Source of the DNA: a virus
Lineage: Duplodnaviria > Heunggongvirae > Uroviricota > Caudoviricetes
Reading direction: 5' to 3' (one strand)
DNA: 8,785 nucleotides
IMG/VR virus record: IMGVR_UViG_2778261571_000014
Location: 1-8,785 of that record
Shown here: positions 1,430 through 7,618 of the stretch, piece by piece
Layout of the letters: each line of letters starts with the position of its first letter
Position numbering within the stretch: position 1 is the stretch's first letter
The notes under the pieces: generated by a model
The model's database searches: none
What the model saw: the letters and a program-made list of their open reading frames with translations, nothing else
What the model was told of the DNA's origin: nothing
Translations under genes and position numbers: made by a program

Positions 1430-1759
1430 CTATTTAATTCTCTTTTCAATGGCTGCAATTATTGCTTTTCCTGATGTTTCAGGAGATTTTGTAGCCATAT
1501 AAGACGAAAAAATCATGTCGGTCATTCTTTCATAACTTACTATTTCCCACTTAGCCAATGCATGGGACAGTTTGTAGTTGTCATCAGTTAGTGCCCTTAT
1601 GGAATTTTTTAAGTGTTTATTCTCTTCTGTTAATCGCGCAATTTTTGTATCAATTTCATGTGAGCGATCTAATTCCTTAACCTGTTTCTTGAGGGCAGCT
1701 AACCCTGCATATAGTACGCAACAGGATATCCCAAGAGCGAGTACGACTATTTCTAACAC
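1430..1759 (-). CDS. Small membrane protein (N-terminal TM helix plus coiled-coil-like region); candidate superinfection-exclusion or accessory protein
   Basis: Track ORF 1430..1975(-). Preferred start is the in-frame GTG at 1759-1757, preceded by AAGGAGG (1770-1764) with 4-nt spacing. The product begins VLEIVVLALGISCCVLYAGLAAL (hydrophobic, about 22 aa) followed by a charged heptad-like segment (KKQVKELDRSHEIDTKIARLTEENKHLKNSIRAL). The upstream extension 1760-1975 is W/H/C/F-rich and overlaps the better-looking + gene 1790..2155. Sits where sieA lies in P22. Confidence 0.5.
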   Translation of the reverse strand: MLEIVVLALGISCCVLYAGLAALKKQVKELDRSHEIDTKIARLTEENKHLKNSIRALTDDNYKLSHALAKWEIVSYERMTDMIFSSYMATKSPETSGKAIIAAIEKRIK

Positions 1760-1789
1760 ACCAACCTCCTTAGTTTTTCGCAGGATACC

Positions 1790-2155
1790 ATGAAAAAAGT
1801 TAACATTGGAAACGTACCAAAAATGCTCGTTCCGCTCTTTGAGAGCGGTACAATTGTGTTTTGTAGAGACTTTCCAGAATGGCAACGCCTGCATCAAAAA
1901 CTTGGCGTTGACGTGCATGACTCGGACGCCAACGGAGCGTCTCATACAATGAGTAGCGAGAATGGTGTTTTGCATGTGATAGGCGTGTTCAATGGCAAAC
2001 TATCTACTATTGCCCATGAGTGCGCTCACATGGCATTCGATATCTGCTCAAGGGTAGGTGTTGATGTTGAACCAGGAAGAGCCAACGAGACTTACTGCTA
2101 CTTAATGAGCAGGCTTGTTGAGTTCTGCGAGCGACATATCAAAAAGCCGGAGTGA
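1790..2155 (+). CDS. Hypothetical 121-aa protein with an HExxH motif (possible small zincin / ImmA-IrrE(M78)-like metallopeptidase)
   Basis: ATG 1790 preceded by AGGA (1781-1784) with 5-nt spacing; stop TGA 2153-2155. The translation contains STIAHECAHMAF (HECAH encoded at 2015-2029), which resembles the xTxAHExxH signature of M78/ImmA-type peptidases. The function is inferred from the motif only. Confidence 0.55.
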   Translation: MKKVNIGNVPKMLVPLFESGTIVFCRDFPEWQRLHQKLGVDVHDSDANGASHTMSSENGVLHVIGVFNGKLSTIAHECAHMAFDICSRVGVDVEPGRANETYCYLMSRLVEFCERHIKKPE

Positions 2156-2163
2156 CCCGGCTT
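2144..2163. terminator. Hairpin between convergent genes (AAGCCGG-agtgac-CCGGCTT); probable intrinsic terminator, better on the minus strand
   Basis: 7-bp stem 2144-2150 / 2157-2163 with a 6-nt loop that contains the TGA stop of 1790..2155. On the minus strand the stem is followed directly by TTTGATAT, giving a 5-T run with the stem Ts. On the + strand it is followed by GATTATTACTTTTT. Confidence 0.35.
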
Positions 2164-2168
2164 GATTA

Positions 2169-2348
2169 TTACTTTTTGCTGTCTGGAGTTCGCTTATCTA
2201 ATACCCAGCCATGACCTGGCTTTGTTGTTGGTGGAAGCCTTTCGTTGTCCTTGACGGTGGCAAAATTGTCTTTCTTACCGCCGCGCGGGCCAACTTCTTG
2301 GTATATTCCGCCGTTTTTTCCTGTGTTTTCACCTGGTTTTTTCGCCAT
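2169..2348 (-). CDS. Small 59-aa Gly/Lys-rich hypothetical protein
   Basis: Track ORF 2169..2363(-). Preferred start is the second ATG (2348-2346), preceded by GAGG with 6-nt spacing, giving MAKKPGENTGKNGGIYQEVGPRGGKKDNFATVKDNERLPPTTKPGHGWVLDKRTPDSKK. Low complexity, so coding status is uncertain. I have an unverified recollection that a 59-codon ORF occupies this position in P22. Confidence 0.4.
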   Translation of the reverse strand: MAKKPGENTGKNGGIYQEVGPRGGKKDNFATVKDNERLPPTTKPGHGWVLDKRTPDSKK

Positions 2349-2437
2349 GATATACCTCAACATGCACTCGTTATTGGGCGATTAAATATTGATCTCATTT
2401 TATGAGTAGTCAATATGGTCCAAAAAAGGCAAAAATT

Positions 2438-2465
2438 AACCCACCTTCAGGTGGGTTTTTTGTTT
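2438..2465. terminator. Bidirectional rho-independent terminator (AACCCACC-ttca-GGTGGGTT followed by TTTTGTTT)
   Basis: 8-bp stem 2438-2445 / 2450-2457, loop 2446-2449, T-run to 2465 on the + strand. On the minus strand the same stem is followed by AATTTTTGCCTTTTTT. The TGA stop of the minus-strand RHH gene (2449-2447) lies in the loop. Confidence 0.6.
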
Positions 2466-2767
2466 AGCAGTTCTCTCAACTTTTCGTTCTGCTCTCTGAA
2501 CTTTTCCTGTATTTCTTTTTGCATGGCGATAACCTGGGCTTGAAGTTGAACTAGCGCATCAACATTTAGCGGAACCGAGACGCTGTTGATTTTATCTGCT
2601 ATTTCCCCGAGTGTATTTTCTGCATTCAAGGCATCTTCCAGTATCTGAACAATCTCTGAGTTCATTGATCTGCCGTTACGTTTGGCTCGTTCAGCTATAG
2701 CATCCCGCATTCCTGCAGGAAGCCTGATATTGAACCTATCCATTTCATGACTAGGGAACTTGCTCAT
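2447..2767 (-). CDS. Ribbon-helix-helix (Arc/Mnt-family) repressor, 106 aa, with a C-terminal coiled-coil-like extension
   Basis: ATG 2767-2765 preceded by GAGG with 4-nt spacing; stop TGA 2449-2447. The N-terminus DRFNIRLPAGMRDAIAERAKRNGRSMNSEIVQILEDAL matches the Arc/Mnt beta-strand and helix signature (FN.R.P ... NGRS.NSE) recalled from P22 Arc and Mnt. It is divergent from the arc-like gene, which is the Mnt position in P22 immI. Confidence 0.75.
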   Translation of the reverse strand: MSKFPSHEMDRFNIRLPAGMRDAIAERAKRNGRSMNSEIVQILEDALNAENTLGEIADKINSVSVPLNVDALVQLQAQVIAMQKEIQEKFREQNEKLRELLNKKPT

Positions 2768-2803
2768 ATGACCTCAACGTAAAGATGTTCGCTAAACAAT
2801 AGC

Positions 2804-2866
2804 ACCAACTTGACATCAAAATAAATGGTGTTAAATTGGTTCTAGAACCAAGTTGGTATCATTATA
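2804..2866. promoter_or_regulatory. Divergent control region of the immI-like locus: rightward Pant-like promoter plus palindromic operator candidates
   Basis: Seen directly: -35 TTGACA (2810-2815), 16-bp spacer, extended -10 TGtTAAATT (TG 2829-2830, hexamer 2832-2837). A perfect 16-bp palindrome TTGGTTCTAGAACCAA (2836-2851) overlaps the -10 and predicted start. A 9-bp inverted repeat ACCAACTTG (2804-2812) / CAAGTTGGT (2849-2857) flanks it. A perfect TATAAT on the minus strand (2866-2861) is a candidate leftward -10 but has no good -35. Confidence 0.5.
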
Positions 2867-2878
2867 GGAGGATTACTT

Positions 2879-3052
2879 ATGAAAGATGTGCTTTACACAG
2901 GTCGTAAAAGTCAAAGTTTTCAGCTTCGTTTGCCAGCGCGAATGAAGGAGGAGATTAGACGTGTTGCTGAAATGGATGGAATTTCTATCAACTCTGCGAT
3001 TGTGCAGCGACTGGCTAAAAGCCTGAGAGAGGAAAGAGCTAATGCCCAGTAA
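2879..3052 (+). CDS. arc: Arc-like ribbon-helix-helix repressor, 57 aa (absent from the supplied ORF track, presumably below its length cutoff)
   Basis: ATG 2879 preceded by AGGAGG (2866-2871) with 7-nt spacing; stop TAA 3050-3052. Translation MKDVLYTGRKSQSFQLRLPARMKEEIRRVAEMDGISINSAIVQRLAKSLREERANAQ aligns by eye with P22 Arc (…QFNLRWPREV…AEENGRSVNSEIYQRV…). It lies between the divergent RHH gene and the antirepressor gene, as arc does in P22. Confidence 0.75.
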   Translation: MKDVLYTGRKSQSFQLRLPARMKEEIRRVAEMDGISINSAIVQRLAKSLREERANAQ

Positions 3053-3125
3053 AAATAGTGAAGCCCAGCAGTGCGCGAACACAAACTGGGCCTCTATGTC
3101 AGTAACCGTATGCAAGGAAACTAAC

Positions 3126-3752
3126 ATGAATATTGTAGCAAAATCAGATTACAACTTCCACGGAGTTGAGTTGGTGCCCACCCGTGATATGCATGGTGTT
3201 TGGTTTACATCATCTAATATTGCATCTGCACTTAAATACGCAAATAGTCGTGCAGTAACAATGATTTATAACAAGTATAGCGATGAGTTTAGCGCCGGAA
3301 TGACTCAGGTACTCGAAGTGAGTACCTCAGGAAATTATCGCAAAAAAGTGCGAGTTTTCTCACTACGCGGTGCCCACCTAATCGCGATGTTTGCTCGCAC
3401 TCCGGTAGCCAAAGAGTTTCGCCGCTGGGTGCTGGATATTTTGGATCGGCAGGCAGAATGCTCACCGATTGCAAAACAGTTTACTGACGAAGAACTGGTT
3501 AATCTCTGCTACTTACAATTGTGGATGGAGAAGAGTCAACAAATGTGCAAACACATCTACCCAGGAATGAAGCAAATTGGTTCTGAGCTTTCAGGAAGAA
3601 TTTACGATATTGCATATGAGACTCGCTATATGTCAGAAGAAACCAAGAAATCACTTCTTCGTGAAATGAAGAATCTTGATACCAACAATTTTGTCGTAAA
3701 GAACGCTCAGCCAATGCTGACAAAACTGCGCGGCGAGGAATGGATTCATTGA
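3126..3752 (+). CDS. Phage antirepressor, Bro-N/AntA-type N-terminal domain
   Basis: Track ORF 3042..3752. Preferred start is ATG 3126, preceded by AAGGAAA with 5-nt spacing. The recognisable domain (NFHGVELVPTRDMHGVWFTSSNIASALKY … VRVFSLRGAHLIAMFARTPVAKEFRRWVLDIL) begins about 10 aa after it and matches the Bro-N/AntA pattern (F.F…WF…A..L… ending …A..F..WV). The alternative ATG 3042 overlaps the arc stop by 11 nt and cannot be excluded. Stop TGA 3750-3752. Confidence 0.7.
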   Translation: MNIVAKSDYNFHGVELVPTRDMHGVWFTSSNIASALKYANSRAVTMIYNKYSDEFSAGMTQVLEVSTSGNYRKKVRVFSLRGAHLIAMFARTPVAKEFRRWVLDILDRQAECSPIAKQFTDEELVNLCYLQLWMEKSQQMCKHIYPGMKQIGSELSGRIYDIAYETRYMSEETKKSLLREMKNLDTNNFVVKNAQPMLTKLRGEEWIH

Positions 3753-3781
3753 TTGGTGCGCCGGACGGCGCAAAAAGAAAA

Positions 3782-3802
3782 CCGCCAGTGTGCTGCTGGC
3801 GG
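3782..3802 (-). terminator. Terminator-like GC-rich hairpin on the minus strand (CCGCCAG-7 nt-CTGGCGG followed by TTTTCTTTTT)
   Basis: 7-bp stem 3782-3788 / 3796-3802. On the minus strand it is followed by a T-tract (complement of the A-run 3772-3780); on the + strand no T-tract follows. A second short hairpin GCGCC-ggac-GGCGC lies at 3758-3771. No minus-strand gene is evident upstream of it. Confidence 0.3.
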
Positions 3803-3840
3803 CCTATGTCACACCCTTACTACCACATAAGGAATGCCTA

Positions 3841-4566
3841 ATGACTTTGAAGAATGTAGCAAACATCGGATCCGTTGTCACGGATAAAACCATTGACAGC
3901 CAAAGTCTTCTGATGATGGTTAATGAAGCTCGCAAGTTATGTGGAGAGCCATCAGTACGTAACAACAAATTCATCGAGAAAATTGAGGATGAATTGGAGG
4001 GCGAGACCTACACAAAAAGTGTAGGTCGGAAAAACGGGGCTGACATTGATGTTATCTCCATGACTATCAAGCAGGCGCTTCGTGTTGCTGCTCGCGAATC
4101 TAAAGCAGTTCGCCGAACACTTGTAGACAAACTTGAAAGTATGCAGGAAGCACACATTAAAAGCGGTAAATCAGCGAGTGGACTTGTTGAGTATCGTCAA
4201 GCGCGAACATTGAAAATGACGGTTGAAGCTGTTACCAATCTGTTCGATCTGATGCCAAATCTTGCGCCTGAGGCAAAGCAGACAGCGGCAGCAAGTATAA
4301 TCAACCCGCTCGTTGGTTTTAATGCAATACCTCTTCCGGCAATAGAAGAGCATTACTACTCAGCAGGGGAGGTTGCAGAGCAGCTTGGAGTAACGGCCAA
4401 CAAGATTGGTCGTATTGCTAACGCAAACAACCTCAAAACTGAGCAGTACGGGAAGTTCTTCCTAGATAAATCGGCGCATTCCAGCAAACAGGTAGAGGCG
4501 TTCCGTTACAATTCTGAAGGCGTTAAAGCACTACAACACCTGCTACATGGCTCAAATGTGGCGTAA
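3841..4566 (+). CDS. Second antirepressor-like / phage regulatory protein (Rha- or KilAC-like features), 241 aa
   Basis: Track ORF 3790..4566. Preferred start is ATG 3841, preceded by AAGGAA with 6-nt spacing; the 3790 start would place the GC hairpin in coding sequence and lacks an RBS. Stop TAA 4564-4566. The C-terminal segment SAGEVAEQLGVTANKIGRIANANNL looks like a helix-turn-helix. Family assignment is from memory of antirepressor C-terminal domains and is tentative. Confidence 0.55.
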   Translation: MTLKNVANIGSVVTDKTIDSQSLLMMVNEARKLCGEPSVRNNKFIEKIEDELEGETYTKSVGRKNGADIDVISMTIKQALRVAARESKAVRRTLVDKLESMQEAHIKSGKSASGLVEYRQARTLKMTVEAVTNLFDLMPNLAPEAKQTAAASIINPLVGFNAIPLPAIEEHYYSAGEVAEQLGVTANKIGRIANANNLKTEQYGKFFLDKSAHSSKQVEAFRYNSEGVKALQHLLHGSNVA

Positions 4567-4584
4567 CATTTTATAATGAAAACT

Positions 4585-4615
4585 AAACCCGCTTAATCGC
4601 GGGTTTTTTCTTTCC
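4585..4615. terminator. Bidirectional rho-independent terminator (AAACCCGC-ttaatc-GCGGGTTT followed by TTTCTTTCC)
   Basis: 8-bp stem 4585-4592 / 4599-4606 with a 6-nt loop, then a T-rich tract on the + strand and AGTTTTCATT on the minus strand. It lies 19 bp after the + gene stop (4566), and the minus-strand mnt-like stop (4595-4593) sits in the loop. Confidence 0.6.
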
Positions 4616-4850
4616 TTAGAATTTCAGCCGCAACTTCTTTTACTCGTTCCGAGATTAATGAGGCCAGCCTCTCTTCTTCATCACGATACCCGCTTACAGG
4701 TGATGGTTTGGAGAGTGATTCTTCCATCGTAGCCACAATTTCGGAATTGATAGACCTGTTATTCATTTTTGCACGCTGCTTAATCTTAGCGTGCAACTCG
4801 TGCGTAAGCCTCAAGTGGAACTGCGCCTCATCGTATTTGCTGTACATCAT
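4593..4850 (-). CDS. mnt: Mnt-type ribbon-helix-helix repressor homolog, 85 aa
   Basis: Track ORF 4593..4928(-). Preferred start is ATG 4850-4848, preceded by GAGG with 5-nt spacing. The product MMYSKYDEAQFHLRLTHELHAKIKQRAKMNNRSINSEIVATMEESLSKPSPVSGYRDEEERLASL… aligns along its length with P22 Mnt as recalled (…HFNFRMPMEVREKLKFRAEANGRSMNSELLQIVQDALSKPSPVTGYRNDAERLA…). The upstream extension (MHTEMVRLLICTVGFTMPFHPFGEAL) has no RBS. Confidence 0.8.
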   Translation of the reverse strand: MMYSKYDEAQFHLRLTHELHAKIKQRAKMNNRSINSEIVATMEESLSKPSPVSGYRDEEERLASLISERVKEVAAEILRKEKTRD

Positions 4851-4982
4851 CAATGCCTCACCAAATGGGTGGAATGGCATCGTAAAACCTACTGTACAAA
4901 TCAACAATCGTACCATTTCGGTATGCAATAAACACCAACCGTAGCCATGCTGCGGCGATTCCTTGTATCTGGAGCAAATTAA

Positions 4983-6896
4983 ATGACAGATTCAATAAAT
5001 GCCAATGTTGTAGTAAGCATGCCTTCTCAACTCTTCACTATGGCTCGTTCTTTTAAAGCCGTAGCCAATGGCAAAATTTATATCGGTAAAATTGACACGG
5101 ACCCGGTAAATCCTGAAAACCAGATTCAGGTTTATGTGGAGAACGAAGATGGTTCTCACGTTCCTGTTTCGCAACCAATCATCATTAACGCTGCTGGATA
5201 TCCGGTATATAACGGACAGATTGCTAAGTTCGTAACTGTGCAAGGCCATTCTATGGCTGTTTATGATGCGTATGGTGCACAGCAGTTCAATTTTCCAAAC
5301 GTGCTGAAGTATGATCCTGATCAGTTTCGTCAGGAACTGGCAGGTAATAGTGGTGCGTCACAGATTGGTTCCTCATCAGGAAATACTGTTCAACAAGAAA
5401 TAGATCGTCTAAATAAATTTGGTTATGCTTATGGTGTTAGATTAAGCGCGTATATGCATGAAAGCGACCCCTTAACAAGCGCCCTGACTGCATCACGGGA
5501 AAAAAGACTACCACTTGTCATTGATTGTGATGCGACATATAAAACTTTAGTGGTTTACAGTAATGACAGAATAATTGGCTGCGGTGATCATACATTAACA
5601 AAATCCGGTAATGATAAGCCATCCATTCCACCGGCACAACAACCAGAACGCCCTTCTGGTTCGATGACTAATTTTAGTGAAATTGATGCAGGTATCGTTA
5701 TTGTTCACCCTGACAATGGGTCGGCAACCAATATTATTATTTCAGGGTTTAACCTCGCGACTAACTCACATTGCGACTATGCGATACATTGCTCTTTCAT
5801 GTCTTTTACAAAAATAGAAGATATGAAGTTCAACGGGTACAAGCGTGGGATTAAATGGTACACCGCCTATGGAAATCAGCTATCCAGAATATTTTCACTT
5901 TACTACTATTCTGTCACTGATGTTTTTTCAGACTATATTTGCTACGATTTTTCTGACGGTAACTACCCATCAGGCACATCAAATACCCTAACAAACGTAA
6001 CATGCACCAACTATAAGAAATGCTATTACGTAGCAAATCTAAACTACTCTACATTTACCAATTGTGGTGGTGAAGGAGTAGAGTCACCAACACCAGTATC
6101 CACAGGAAACATCCCACAGACCTTCGAGTTTGTCAATTGCCCTAATATTGTCCTGAATACACCATATACTGAGAATTTAAGGGGTGGATTTATAAGGGCA
6201 GTTAGTGATGCATCCGGGGTGTATCAAGGTGCCGCAACTATGGTCATCAATGGGCCAGAGGCGGTCGTGGGTATCACAGGCACCACTACCAATGTTGGCG
6301 CTAAGCTTCTGGACATTCAGGGAGGAGTTAACTGTGTGATAAACGGTGGATACATGACAGGTGCTGCAAGTGGGTATTTCCTTGAGTTTGGTGGGGCATC
6401 GGATGACGCAACCCTTACGATAATAGGGATGGAAATGCGCAACGTATTAGAACAAATACGAAACCATCCTGGATATAACGGAATTAACTCTATAAAAGGG
6501 TTAAGGCCTATGCAGTTACTTCGTAAAGGGATTGGAGATGCGACCGGGACCGGGATAGTAAACTGGAAAACAGCTGCCGAAGACCAGTATTTTATGGGCG
6601 GGGGAAATTTCACTAAAACAATACTTGGTGGATTTTATAAGATAGAAATTACGTTACCCATAGGATCTTCCGCATCAGGCGGAGAAGTTCAACTCTTGCT
6701 GTCAGATACGGATACAGACAATGGAGTTATAATTTCACAATGCTATGTTCCTCCAGTGTCAAGCGGTAAGTTTACTGCCTCCATAAGCTACGAGGGTAGA
6801 TTGCCAGGTGGAAAGTTTCTTTATGTAAAAACTAATAATGCCAATTGGTCATCTGGATACGATCCAGACTCAATATTTAATGTTGTTCTGAAATAA
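4983..6896 (+). CDS. Tailspike protein (P22 gp9-like N-terminal head-binding domain; divergent C-terminal receptor-binding domain), 637 aa
   Basis: ATG 4983 preceded by GGAG with 8-nt spacing; stop TAA 6894-6896. The first ~113 aa ([12 protein letters not shown]…[21 protein letters not shown]…ENEDGSHV…[12 protein letters not shown]…VLKYDPDQ) closely match the P22 tailspike N-terminus as recalled. The rest is Gly/Thr/Asn/Ser-rich, consistent with a beta-rich receptor-binding domain, and is not recognisably P22-like. Confidence 0.9.
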
Positions 6897-7284
6897 CAAT
6901 ATTTATAATGATGCACGCAAAGCTTTGTACTGGATTGCAAGGCTTTGCGCTATACGATAGTGGCTAAGGTGGGTCACTCTACCTTCTCATCAATCCAGTC
7001 CGCCCACCATTGCATCATTTCTCTGCGCTTAACGTAGCGGATGCCTCACTATCACACGGTGATGGTTCATTACTGGTTTGCAGAATGGATAGAGAACTGA
7101 GGATAAAAGATATCCCAAAACCCCAAAATCTCATCTTTAGGATTTGCAGAAAGGTAGGCGTGAACAGATACCTACGCATGAAGACGGGACTAGCTCAGAT
7201 GTGATATTTGTGGTGATCACATACATCATCAACGATGCTCGTTATGGTGAGTTTGATGACTACCCGCTGAAGTGAAAATTGTGT

Positions 7285-7308
7285 TGTGTACCAAATTGCG
7301 TACCAAAC
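7285..7308. repeat. Tandem 12-bp direct repeat (TGTGTACCAAAT / TGCGTACCAAAC) in the prophage-host junction region
   Basis: Two adjacent 12-mers identical at 10 of 12 positions; the core GTACCAAA occurs at 7288-7295 and 7300-7307. Function unknown; could be a protein-binding site or an att-proximal arm-type site. Confidence 0.3.
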
Positions 7309-7618
7309 TAAAATCACAAATCATGAAACCCTTGTTCATGGCGGTTCTCAGGGGTGTTTCGCGTAATCGTGAAACAAAAAGGTAGATTGTTGCTTACCGT
7401 CATTCATCATTAGGTTAAATCCGTTATTTCTGCTGTCTGCCAGAGTATCAAATATCACCGTGCTAATCAGCTTTAGCGCCACAATTTGGCAGCGAGTGGC
7501 AACAGATCATGTCAGATAAAAATGAGAGGGTAGTCACATTTTCTTGCACTTTATTCCAGCCAGTTCATAAGTATTTCCGTAAAAAGAACAGCTATTTGAA
7601 ACTCCTGAGGGTTTGCTG

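Follow-up and report, generated by a model that had tools for sequence, protein, structure and literature searches.

The stretch of DNA considered here, called the window below, consists of 8,785 nucleotides (nt) of the viral record IMGVR_UViG_2778261571_000014. The window, 8.8 kb long, represents the right-hand end of a P22-like (Lederbergvirus-type) prophage of Escherichia coli and reaches the host gene dacD. It carries the small gene hkcC, whose product, HkcC, is very probably a miniature zinc protease, as judged from its conserved residues and predicted structure. A preliminary description of the window, made from the sequence alone, reported an open reading frame of 121 amino acids at positions 1790-2155 of the plus strand with an HECAH motif at nt 2015-2029, and both are exactly as described there. 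The frame begins with ATG at 1790 and ends with TGA at 2153-2155 on the plus strand. The product holds STIAHECAHMAF, and the motif is encoded by CAT (2015-2017), GAG (2018-2020), TGC, GCT and CAC (2027-2029). The features of hkcC are listed here; conservation refers to a set of 133 family sequences and secondary structure to an AlphaFold model, both described below.

1782..1785, plus strand: AGGA Shine-Dalgarno sequence, 4 nt before the hkcC ATG, read from the sequence
1790..2155, plus strand: hkcC coding sequence from the list of open reading frames, 121 amino acids plus TGA; matches phrog_1365 over its full length (E-value, E, 1.7e-39)
1934..1936, plus strand: codon of G49, the start of strand 49-56; present in 133/133 sequences
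2015..2029, plus strand: HECAH (H76, E77, H80), inside helix 71-88; 133/133 sequences
2084..2101, plus strand: N99-E100-T-Y-C103-Y104, at the start of the C-terminal helix 100-116; E100 in 132/133 sequences, Y104 in 125, C103 in 105 and N99 in 96
2144..2163: GC-rich hairpin across the hkcC stop codon, with a T-run on the minus strand; annotated 't mnt' in P22 and 'tORF59A' in HK620

HkcC of the window shares 99.2% of its residues with its counterpart in coliphage HK620 and is equally close to the corresponding P22 reading frame. The sole difference from both proteins is H43, which is Q43 in P22 and HK620. The HK620 and P22 genes occupy the same place as here, between gene 16 and the immI/tailspike region. 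In P22 the frame sits between sieA and orf59a and is unannotated in the P22-pbi record (AF527608), where only 'PsieA' and 't mnt' are marked. In the epsilon34 genome paper, hkcC and 59a are described as two unknown-function genes of the P22 'ant moron' (PMC2629481). Two genome papers that name hkcC list it as 'unknown' and do not state a metalloprotease-like nature, and the phrog_1365 entry in PHROGs carries the label 'unknown function'. Searches of NCBIfam and PADLOC gave no meaningful matches, and nothing of relevance emerged when the literature was searched for anti-defence proteases of phages with SprT-like or HExxH features. Although P22 and HK620 are textbook phages, no function has been assigned to this conserved gene of their immI/'ant moron' region.

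Among viral contigs, 36 nucleotide alleles of hkcC encode five protein variants, and 26 of the 29 variable sites are found at third codon positions. Because variation concentrates at these positions, the plus-strand frame is taken as coding and under purifying selection. hkcC is a real, conserved phage accessory gene. The protein has no hydrophobic segment (the Kyte-Doolittle maximum is 1.07 over 19 residues) and is predicted to be soluble and cytoplasmic.

When 1.84 billion representative proteins were searched exhaustively with HMMER, HkcC proved to belong to a family of at least 514 clusters at 50% identity (E <= 1e-3), nearly all of them stand-alone proteins of 100-160 residues. Conservation was assessed in 133 full-length representatives that are 23-44% identical to the query and have a mean column identity of 15%. 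H76, E77, H80 and G49 are invariant in all 133 sequences; E100 is conserved in 99%, Y104 in 94%, and F67 and G90 in 90%. The family consensus reads GVF(D/N)G...TL(A/V)HExxH..F, followed by NE(T/A)(F/Y)CYL 20 residues past the second His. HExxH is carried by 141 of the 145 family representatives that the HMMER search yielded, and of the four exceptions three seem to be truncated or frameshifted and one reads HKAAH. HkcC is rich in His, and 2.6% of composition-preserving shuffles of it contain HExxH, such that for a single sequence the motif is weakly significant. The motif is not due to chance, as it is conserved throughout a divergent family, and the preliminary description, which had held a chance HExxH to be unlikely, is borne out on this point.

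The signature is kept in epsilon34 gp70, in ST64T Orf-129, in the product of gene 72 of coliphage mEp044 and in gp24 of phCDa, a virulent N4-like phage of Pseudomonas. Homologues are found in temperate and virulent phages of enterobacteria, Pasteurellaceae, Burkholderiales and Pseudomonas, with hosts that include Rodentibacter and Paraburkholderia; their source names are all 'hypothetical'. HkcC is the founding member of a large family of ∼120-residue proteins that is unassigned in Pfam and has an HExxH...E signature, and its recognition as such gives a concrete and testable handle. epsilon34 gp70 and ST64T Orf-129 form a paralogous subfamily, and both paralogues are present in some P22-like phages (ST160, SE1 and UAB_Phi20). 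In several longer homologues of 173-194 residues (mEp044_72 at 4001-4582 of L004, P0065, P0072, P0136 and P0156), an acidic coiled-coil-like stretch is followed by a strongly basic Lys/Arg-rich tail, e.g. ...KKGKRKPKAKDAYVPRVMSFKRG. A Pfam scan of these longer proteins detected no fused domain. The basic tail may bind nucleic acid.

A structural model of HkcC was built by AlphaFold2 on a 19-sequence alignment, with a mean pLDDT (predicted local distance difference test) of 89.3 and a pTM (predicted template modelling score) of 0.83. It consists of strands 11-13 and 21-25, helix 28-37, a hairpin of strands 49-56 and 59-66, and helices 71-88 and 100-116. With E for strand and H for helix, the element order is E-E-H-E-E-H(HExxH)-H(E100), where E100 is the first residue of helix 100-116. 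This predicted order is zincin-like, i.e., it fits a zincin catalytic core. Within clan MA, gluzincins are marked by HExxH with a Glu 20 residues later on the helix that follows. HkcC has HExxH, 19 residues and then Glu, with E100 located 20 residues after H80; the conserved HExxH on a helix and the Glu on the following helix, by which gluzincins are recognized, are both present. Presumably, H76 and H80 bind the zinc together with E100 as third ligand, and E77 acts as catalytic base. Strand 49-56, which begins at G49, is presumed to be the substrate-binding edge strand. The size of HkcC, about 110-120 residues, is presumably comparable with that of minigluzincins. The preliminary description had asked whether a fold prediction would reveal a zincin with a third metal ligand and whether homologues conserve the HExxH residues. 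The AlphaFold model has a zincin-like layout with E100 as a plausible third ligand, and the HExxH residues are conserved in homologues.

A PDB structure search with the HkcC model retrieved no solved zincins at a significant score. Among viral structures (BFVD), 26 neighbours are found at E < 1e-3; those with names are 'SprT-like', and 'Metalloprotease' is next at E 1.3e-3. When the 133-member profile was compared with PDB sequences, 13 of the 17 matches at E <= 10 were zinc proteases, none of them significant; these include myroilysin (0.02), BMP1/astacin (0.06), Lys-metalloendopeptidase (0.68) and thermolysin (about 1). A profile of close homologues gave no match to PDB sequences. Thermolysin (M4) resembles HkcC in that its HExxH is followed by N-E 20 residues on, at the start of the next helix. 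The thermolysin match covers equal spans, profile positions 71-116 and thermolysin residues 134-179, with the family H, E, H and E falling on residues 142, 143, 146 and 166, the known zinc ligands and catalytic Glu of that enzyme. This register is a hint only, because a profile of the motif region alone returned noise from the PDB, with RNase A on top.

The closest relatives of HkcC appear to be the SprT-like proteases, at sub-threshold scores from which membership is not demonstrable. Among weak Pfam matches SprT-like (PF10263) clearly predominates, with 34 of the 133 members; the best E is 1e-4, which corresponds to ∼21 bits by extrapolation and is below the gathering score of 25.6 bits, and one member that was checked scores 15.7 bits. 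Other weak matches of members are to DUF5700, M50B, DA1, M48 and reprolysin. An hhalign comparison of the HkcC family with a SprT profile gave 8.6% probability over 82 colinear columns, which extend from the N-terminal strands to the HExxH helix. At the level of structure, viral neighbours annotated 'SprT-like' have E 7.5e-5 and 4e-4 with template modelling (TM) scores of 0.56-0.72, and SPRTN (6mdx) is the third PDB Foldseek match of HkcC. Both SprT-like/Spartan proteins and HkcC have the HExxH helix behind a small beta/alpha subdomain.

These similarities raise the question of whether HkcC is a minimal SprT/Spartan-like DNA-dependent protease that removes proteins attached covalently or tightly to DNA, for example on replicating or packaged phage DNA, or host factors bound to DNA. 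The Lys/Arg-rich C-terminal tails of several longer homologues, which could bind nucleic acid, would be in keeping with such a role. The presumed zinc ligands, however, differ. E. coli SprT has His residues past the motif (HELAHLLVWKHFGRVAPHG), and the third zinc ligand of SprT/Spartan/Wss1 is a His in that stretch, a few residues downstream of HExxH. In the 133-sequence family no conserved His is found between H80 and E100; E100, 20 residues after H80, is present instead and is the presumed third ligand of HkcC. In addition, the 121-residue form has no DNA-binding domain and no match to the SprT zinc ribbon (PF17283), which is present in E. coli SprT. A DNA-dependent SprT/Spartan-type role is considered unlikely for HkcC.

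The preliminary description had also pointed to an ImmA/IrrE (M78)-like signature. Proteins of this class (COG2856) are often phage-borne and pair genetically with an XRE-type helix-turn-helix (HTH) repressor, which is their substrate or target (PMC6868357). Like HkcC, ImmA/IrrE proteins are small and have HExxH in a T-L-A-H-E-L-x-H context. As an M78-type anti-repressor protease, HkcC would cut Mnt, Arc or the distant C2 and so control prophage induction. The (S)T-I/L-A-H-E-x-x-H context does resemble the M78 signature (orf122 of Sfi21 reads VLLHELGHL), and Mnt- and Arc-family genes are found within 300-700 nt of hkcC both in the window and in P22. As the preliminary description had noted, the nearby regulators are of the ribbon-helix-helix (RHH) and not the HTH type; matches to the Arc family (PF03869) are located at 2447-2767 (minus strand), 2879-3052 (plus strand) and 4593-4928 (minus strand).

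The T-L/I-A-H-E-x-x-H context is, however, the sole resemblance to M78 that was found. HkcC as query has no Pfam match at E <= 1, PF06114 included. A Pfam scan of the 133 members gave matches to 52 families, and the 25 of these that are listed do not include PF06114. For profile comparisons, Sfi21 orf122 (PF06114, 52.3 bits), which lies directly beside the HTH gene orf127, served as the M78 control, and E. coli SprT (YggI; PF10263, 82.5 bits) as the SprT control. The HkcC family and a profile of orf122 relatives align with 11% hhalign probability over 26 columns that cover the motif surroundings only; SprT against M78 gave 6%, and comparisons with single sequences (E. coli SprT, Sfi21 orf122) or shallow profiles were all below 12%. 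The sensitivity of hhalign is limited here, since both template profiles hold only sequences >= 75% identical to their seeds. Structure neighbours named IrrE have E 0.03-0.04 and TM scores below 0.4. The second motif of orf122, E-A-Q-A-N, is 16 residues past HExxH, whereas HkcC has A-N-E-T-Y-C-Y.

The genetic setting also differs from that of M78. No XRE or HTH gene is found beside hkcC in the window, in P22, in HK620 or in five other Pfam-annotated contexts. RHH genes are near 67 of 80 near-identical P22-type loci versus 2 of 105 other homologue loci; the RHH neighbourhood is a trait of the P22 'ant moron' and not of the HkcC family. Thus a pairing of the protease with an RHH repressor, which the preliminary description had considered as an unusual possibility, does not hold across the family. 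HK620 retains hkcC though its mnt and ant are remnants, a homologue is present in a virulent N4-like phage, and hkcC is on the late-operon strand, outside any lysogeny operon. With no Pfam match, no profile likeness beyond the motif and no HTH partner, the ImmA/IrrE assignment is not supported and hkcC should not be annotated as such; an M78-type anti-repressor function is regarded as extremely improbable.

The genes that flank hkcC in the window are as follows.

157-1410: C-terminal part of the gene for the gp16 ejection protein (phrog_770)
1430-1762, minus strand: hkcB-like gene, 110 amino acids (phrog_8100, E 5.8e-70 over the full length), with a GTG start behind AAGGAGG
2169..2348, minus strand: orf59a, an HkcD-like gene of 59 amino acids, rich in Gly, Lys and Pro (phrog_3202, E 1.3e-31), convergent with hkcC
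2447-4928: immI block, with Mnt-like and Arc-like RHH genes, two anti-repressor genes and a third RHH gene
4983-6896: tailspike gene (gene 9)
from 7613: dacD, host gene

Wherever it is found in temperate phages, hkcC is on the late-operon strand, and in the window it shares the strand of genes 16 and 9. In P22-like phages it follows the ejection genes 7, 20 and 16. The homologue of epsilon34 and ST64T comes after the lysis genes and adjoins a 'head decoration' gene, and that of mEp044 follows the gene for lysozyme. Siphovirus prophages of Klebsiella and Rosenbergiella, as well as metagenome contigs, have the homologue between the tail-assembly chaperone and tape-measure genes. In phCDa it heads a cluster of small hypothetical genes that is divergent from the terminase cluster. 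Within epsilon34 genes 68-71 (2022-3794 of L003), gp70 follows GIY-YIG nuclease and DUF2560 genes and precedes the gene for a 'head decoration protein', close to the right end of the epsilon34 record.

No sigma-70-like promoter was found upstream of hkcC in the window, and the hairpin at its stop codon is poor in T-runs on the plus strand. PLate transcripts are reported to extend over the ant moron and on into gene 9 (PMC2629481). Given the late strand, the lack of a promoter of its own in the window and read-through from PLate, late expression of hkcC is the most economical inference. The ant moron has been described as a variable 'moron' that has no function in morphogenesis and is absent from some P22-like phages (PMC2629481). 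Of 5426 complete E. coli genomes, 132 have the hkcC-orf59a segment. Since the region is a variable moron and the segment is found in so few genomes, hkcC appears to be dispensable. Homologues of hkcC are also found in 8 of 72,556 plasmid records, several of which are phage-sized.

In temperate phages every copy is located within the virion gene cluster or on its border, which might suggest that HkcC is a morphogenesis protease, or a virion or ejection accessory, that processes an ejection, tape-measure or other structural protein. This role is very unlikely in view of the published description of the ant moron, by which it plays no part in morphogenesis and is missing in some P22-like phages. 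Furthermore, the neighbouring structural genes vary by phage type and therefore no common substrate is apparent, and the phCDa copy is located among small hypothetical genes.

The gene downstream of hkcC is more regularly associated with it. orf59a is convergent with hkcC after a gap of 13 nt in the window and of 5-30 nt across other phages. The pair, with hkcC on the plus and orf59a on the minus strand, recurs in P22, in HK620 (where the copy is degraded), in siphovirus prophages of Klebsiella and Rosenbergiella, in Serratia, Proteus, Xenorhabdus and Enterobacter, in a Pasteurellaceae genome and in metagenome contigs, and it persists in contigs where HkcC is only 43% identical to the query. 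Orf59a is the more conserved of the two proteins, 61-81% identical at loci where HkcC is 43-63% identical. It has a sub-threshold match to Pfam YjzC (E 0.0017). In the contigs that carry the 43%-identical pair (L091), the next gene (1330-1968) encodes a protein with the PF18894 domain, a 'putative phage metallopeptidase' (E 3e-44). This protein was considered as an HkcC relative and rejected, as hhalign shows no relationship beyond HExxH.

The same geometry in P22-like podoviruses, siphovirus prophages, a Pasteurellaceae genome and metagenome contigs, the scatter of paired loci over the HkcC tree and the better conservation of Orf59a are what would be expected of a functional pair. The late protease would remove, or be inhibited by, Orf59a expressed from the prophage, as a lysogeny-to-lysis switch or as a form of self-immunity. 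The association is, however, optional in both directions. orf59a is absent from beside the homologue at 80 of 80 epsilon34-gp70-type loci and at about 11 of 16 intact species-level loci, and it also occurs on its own. As solitary copies occur, orf59a itself behaves like a small mobile gene. One solitary copy (L095) is convergent with a 680-residue open reading frame at 2263-4305 (minus strand), and another (L094) is beside oppositely oriented frames that resemble lysis genes. The two genes of the pair are convergent and therefore not co-transcribed.

There is also a structural reason for the linkage. In 9 of 9 paired loci examined, the hkcC stop codon is overlapped by a hairpin, which in the P22 type is AAAAAGCCGG...CCGGCTT and which acts as terminator for the leftward mnt/orf59a transcript. 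The conserved C-terminal K-K-P-E/A of HkcC in the P22-type subgroup is encoded by this terminator. Because the terminator of orf59a forms part of the 3′ end of hkcC, the linkage could be purely structural. A functional pairing of HkcC with Orf59a is judged quite improbable, and distinctly improbable is the fuller proposal of a mobile two-gene cassette, in which a late mini-zincin removes, or is checked by, prophage-expressed Orf59a. Were this to be true, hkcC-orf59a would be a protease-based switch or self-immunity device unlike ImmA/ImmR that has moved within phage late operons.

The reading favoured here is that HkcC is a catalytically active zinc peptidase that is produced in lytic growth and cleaves a protein of the host or of a competitor, and this is reasonably probable. 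hkcC itself is best described as a dispensable accessory gene of tailed phages with a stand-alone, zincin-type product and no family-wide link to RHH or HTH repressors. The gene would be transcribed by PLate or antiterminated read-through from gene 16 toward the tailspike gene 9. The protein is predicted to fold into two strands, a backing helix, a hairpin from G49, the H76-E77-x-x-H80 helix and a C-terminal helix from E100. By the gluzincin paradigm, one Zn2+ would be held by H76, H80 and E100, and a water molecule would be activated by E77. A protein or peptide substrate would then be cut during lytic growth. The best guess for the target is a protein of the host or of a resident prophage, with the cleavage contributing to host takeover or counter-defence.

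Several points weigh against an active peptidase. The hhalign probabilities against the SprT and M78 profiles are low (8.6% and 11%), and the genomic context of hkcC points to no substrate. In addition, some HExxH proteins are non-proteolytic; one example is Rir of phage TP-J34, an M78-like protein whose action does not involve cleavage (PMC6868357). Phage proteases with host proteins as targets may serve host takeover or counter-defence, and a protease as small as HkcC would be a useful minimal zincin scaffold.

On the other side of hkcC, the divergent hkcB-like gene occupies the position of P22 sieA, and its product has a hydrophobic N-terminal segment followed by a coiled coil. PsieA, the promoter of the leftward P22 gene at this position, is annotated within the first 31 nt of hkcC. 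Since PsieA is inside the start of hkcC, the control regions of the two divergent genes would overlap.

The 'ant moron' is larger in the window than in P22 and has three Arc-family RHH genes together with two different anti-repressor-type genes. One of the latter (3042-3752) has Bro-N and P22_AR_C domains and the other (3790-4566) matches phrog_1726. The enlarged ant moron suggests a duplicated or composite immI module. No tRNA genes or Rfam families were found across the window; as there is no tRNA gene, the prophage attachment site is not at a tRNA within it. The junction between prophage and host must fall within 6897-7612, between the tailspike stop codon and dacD.

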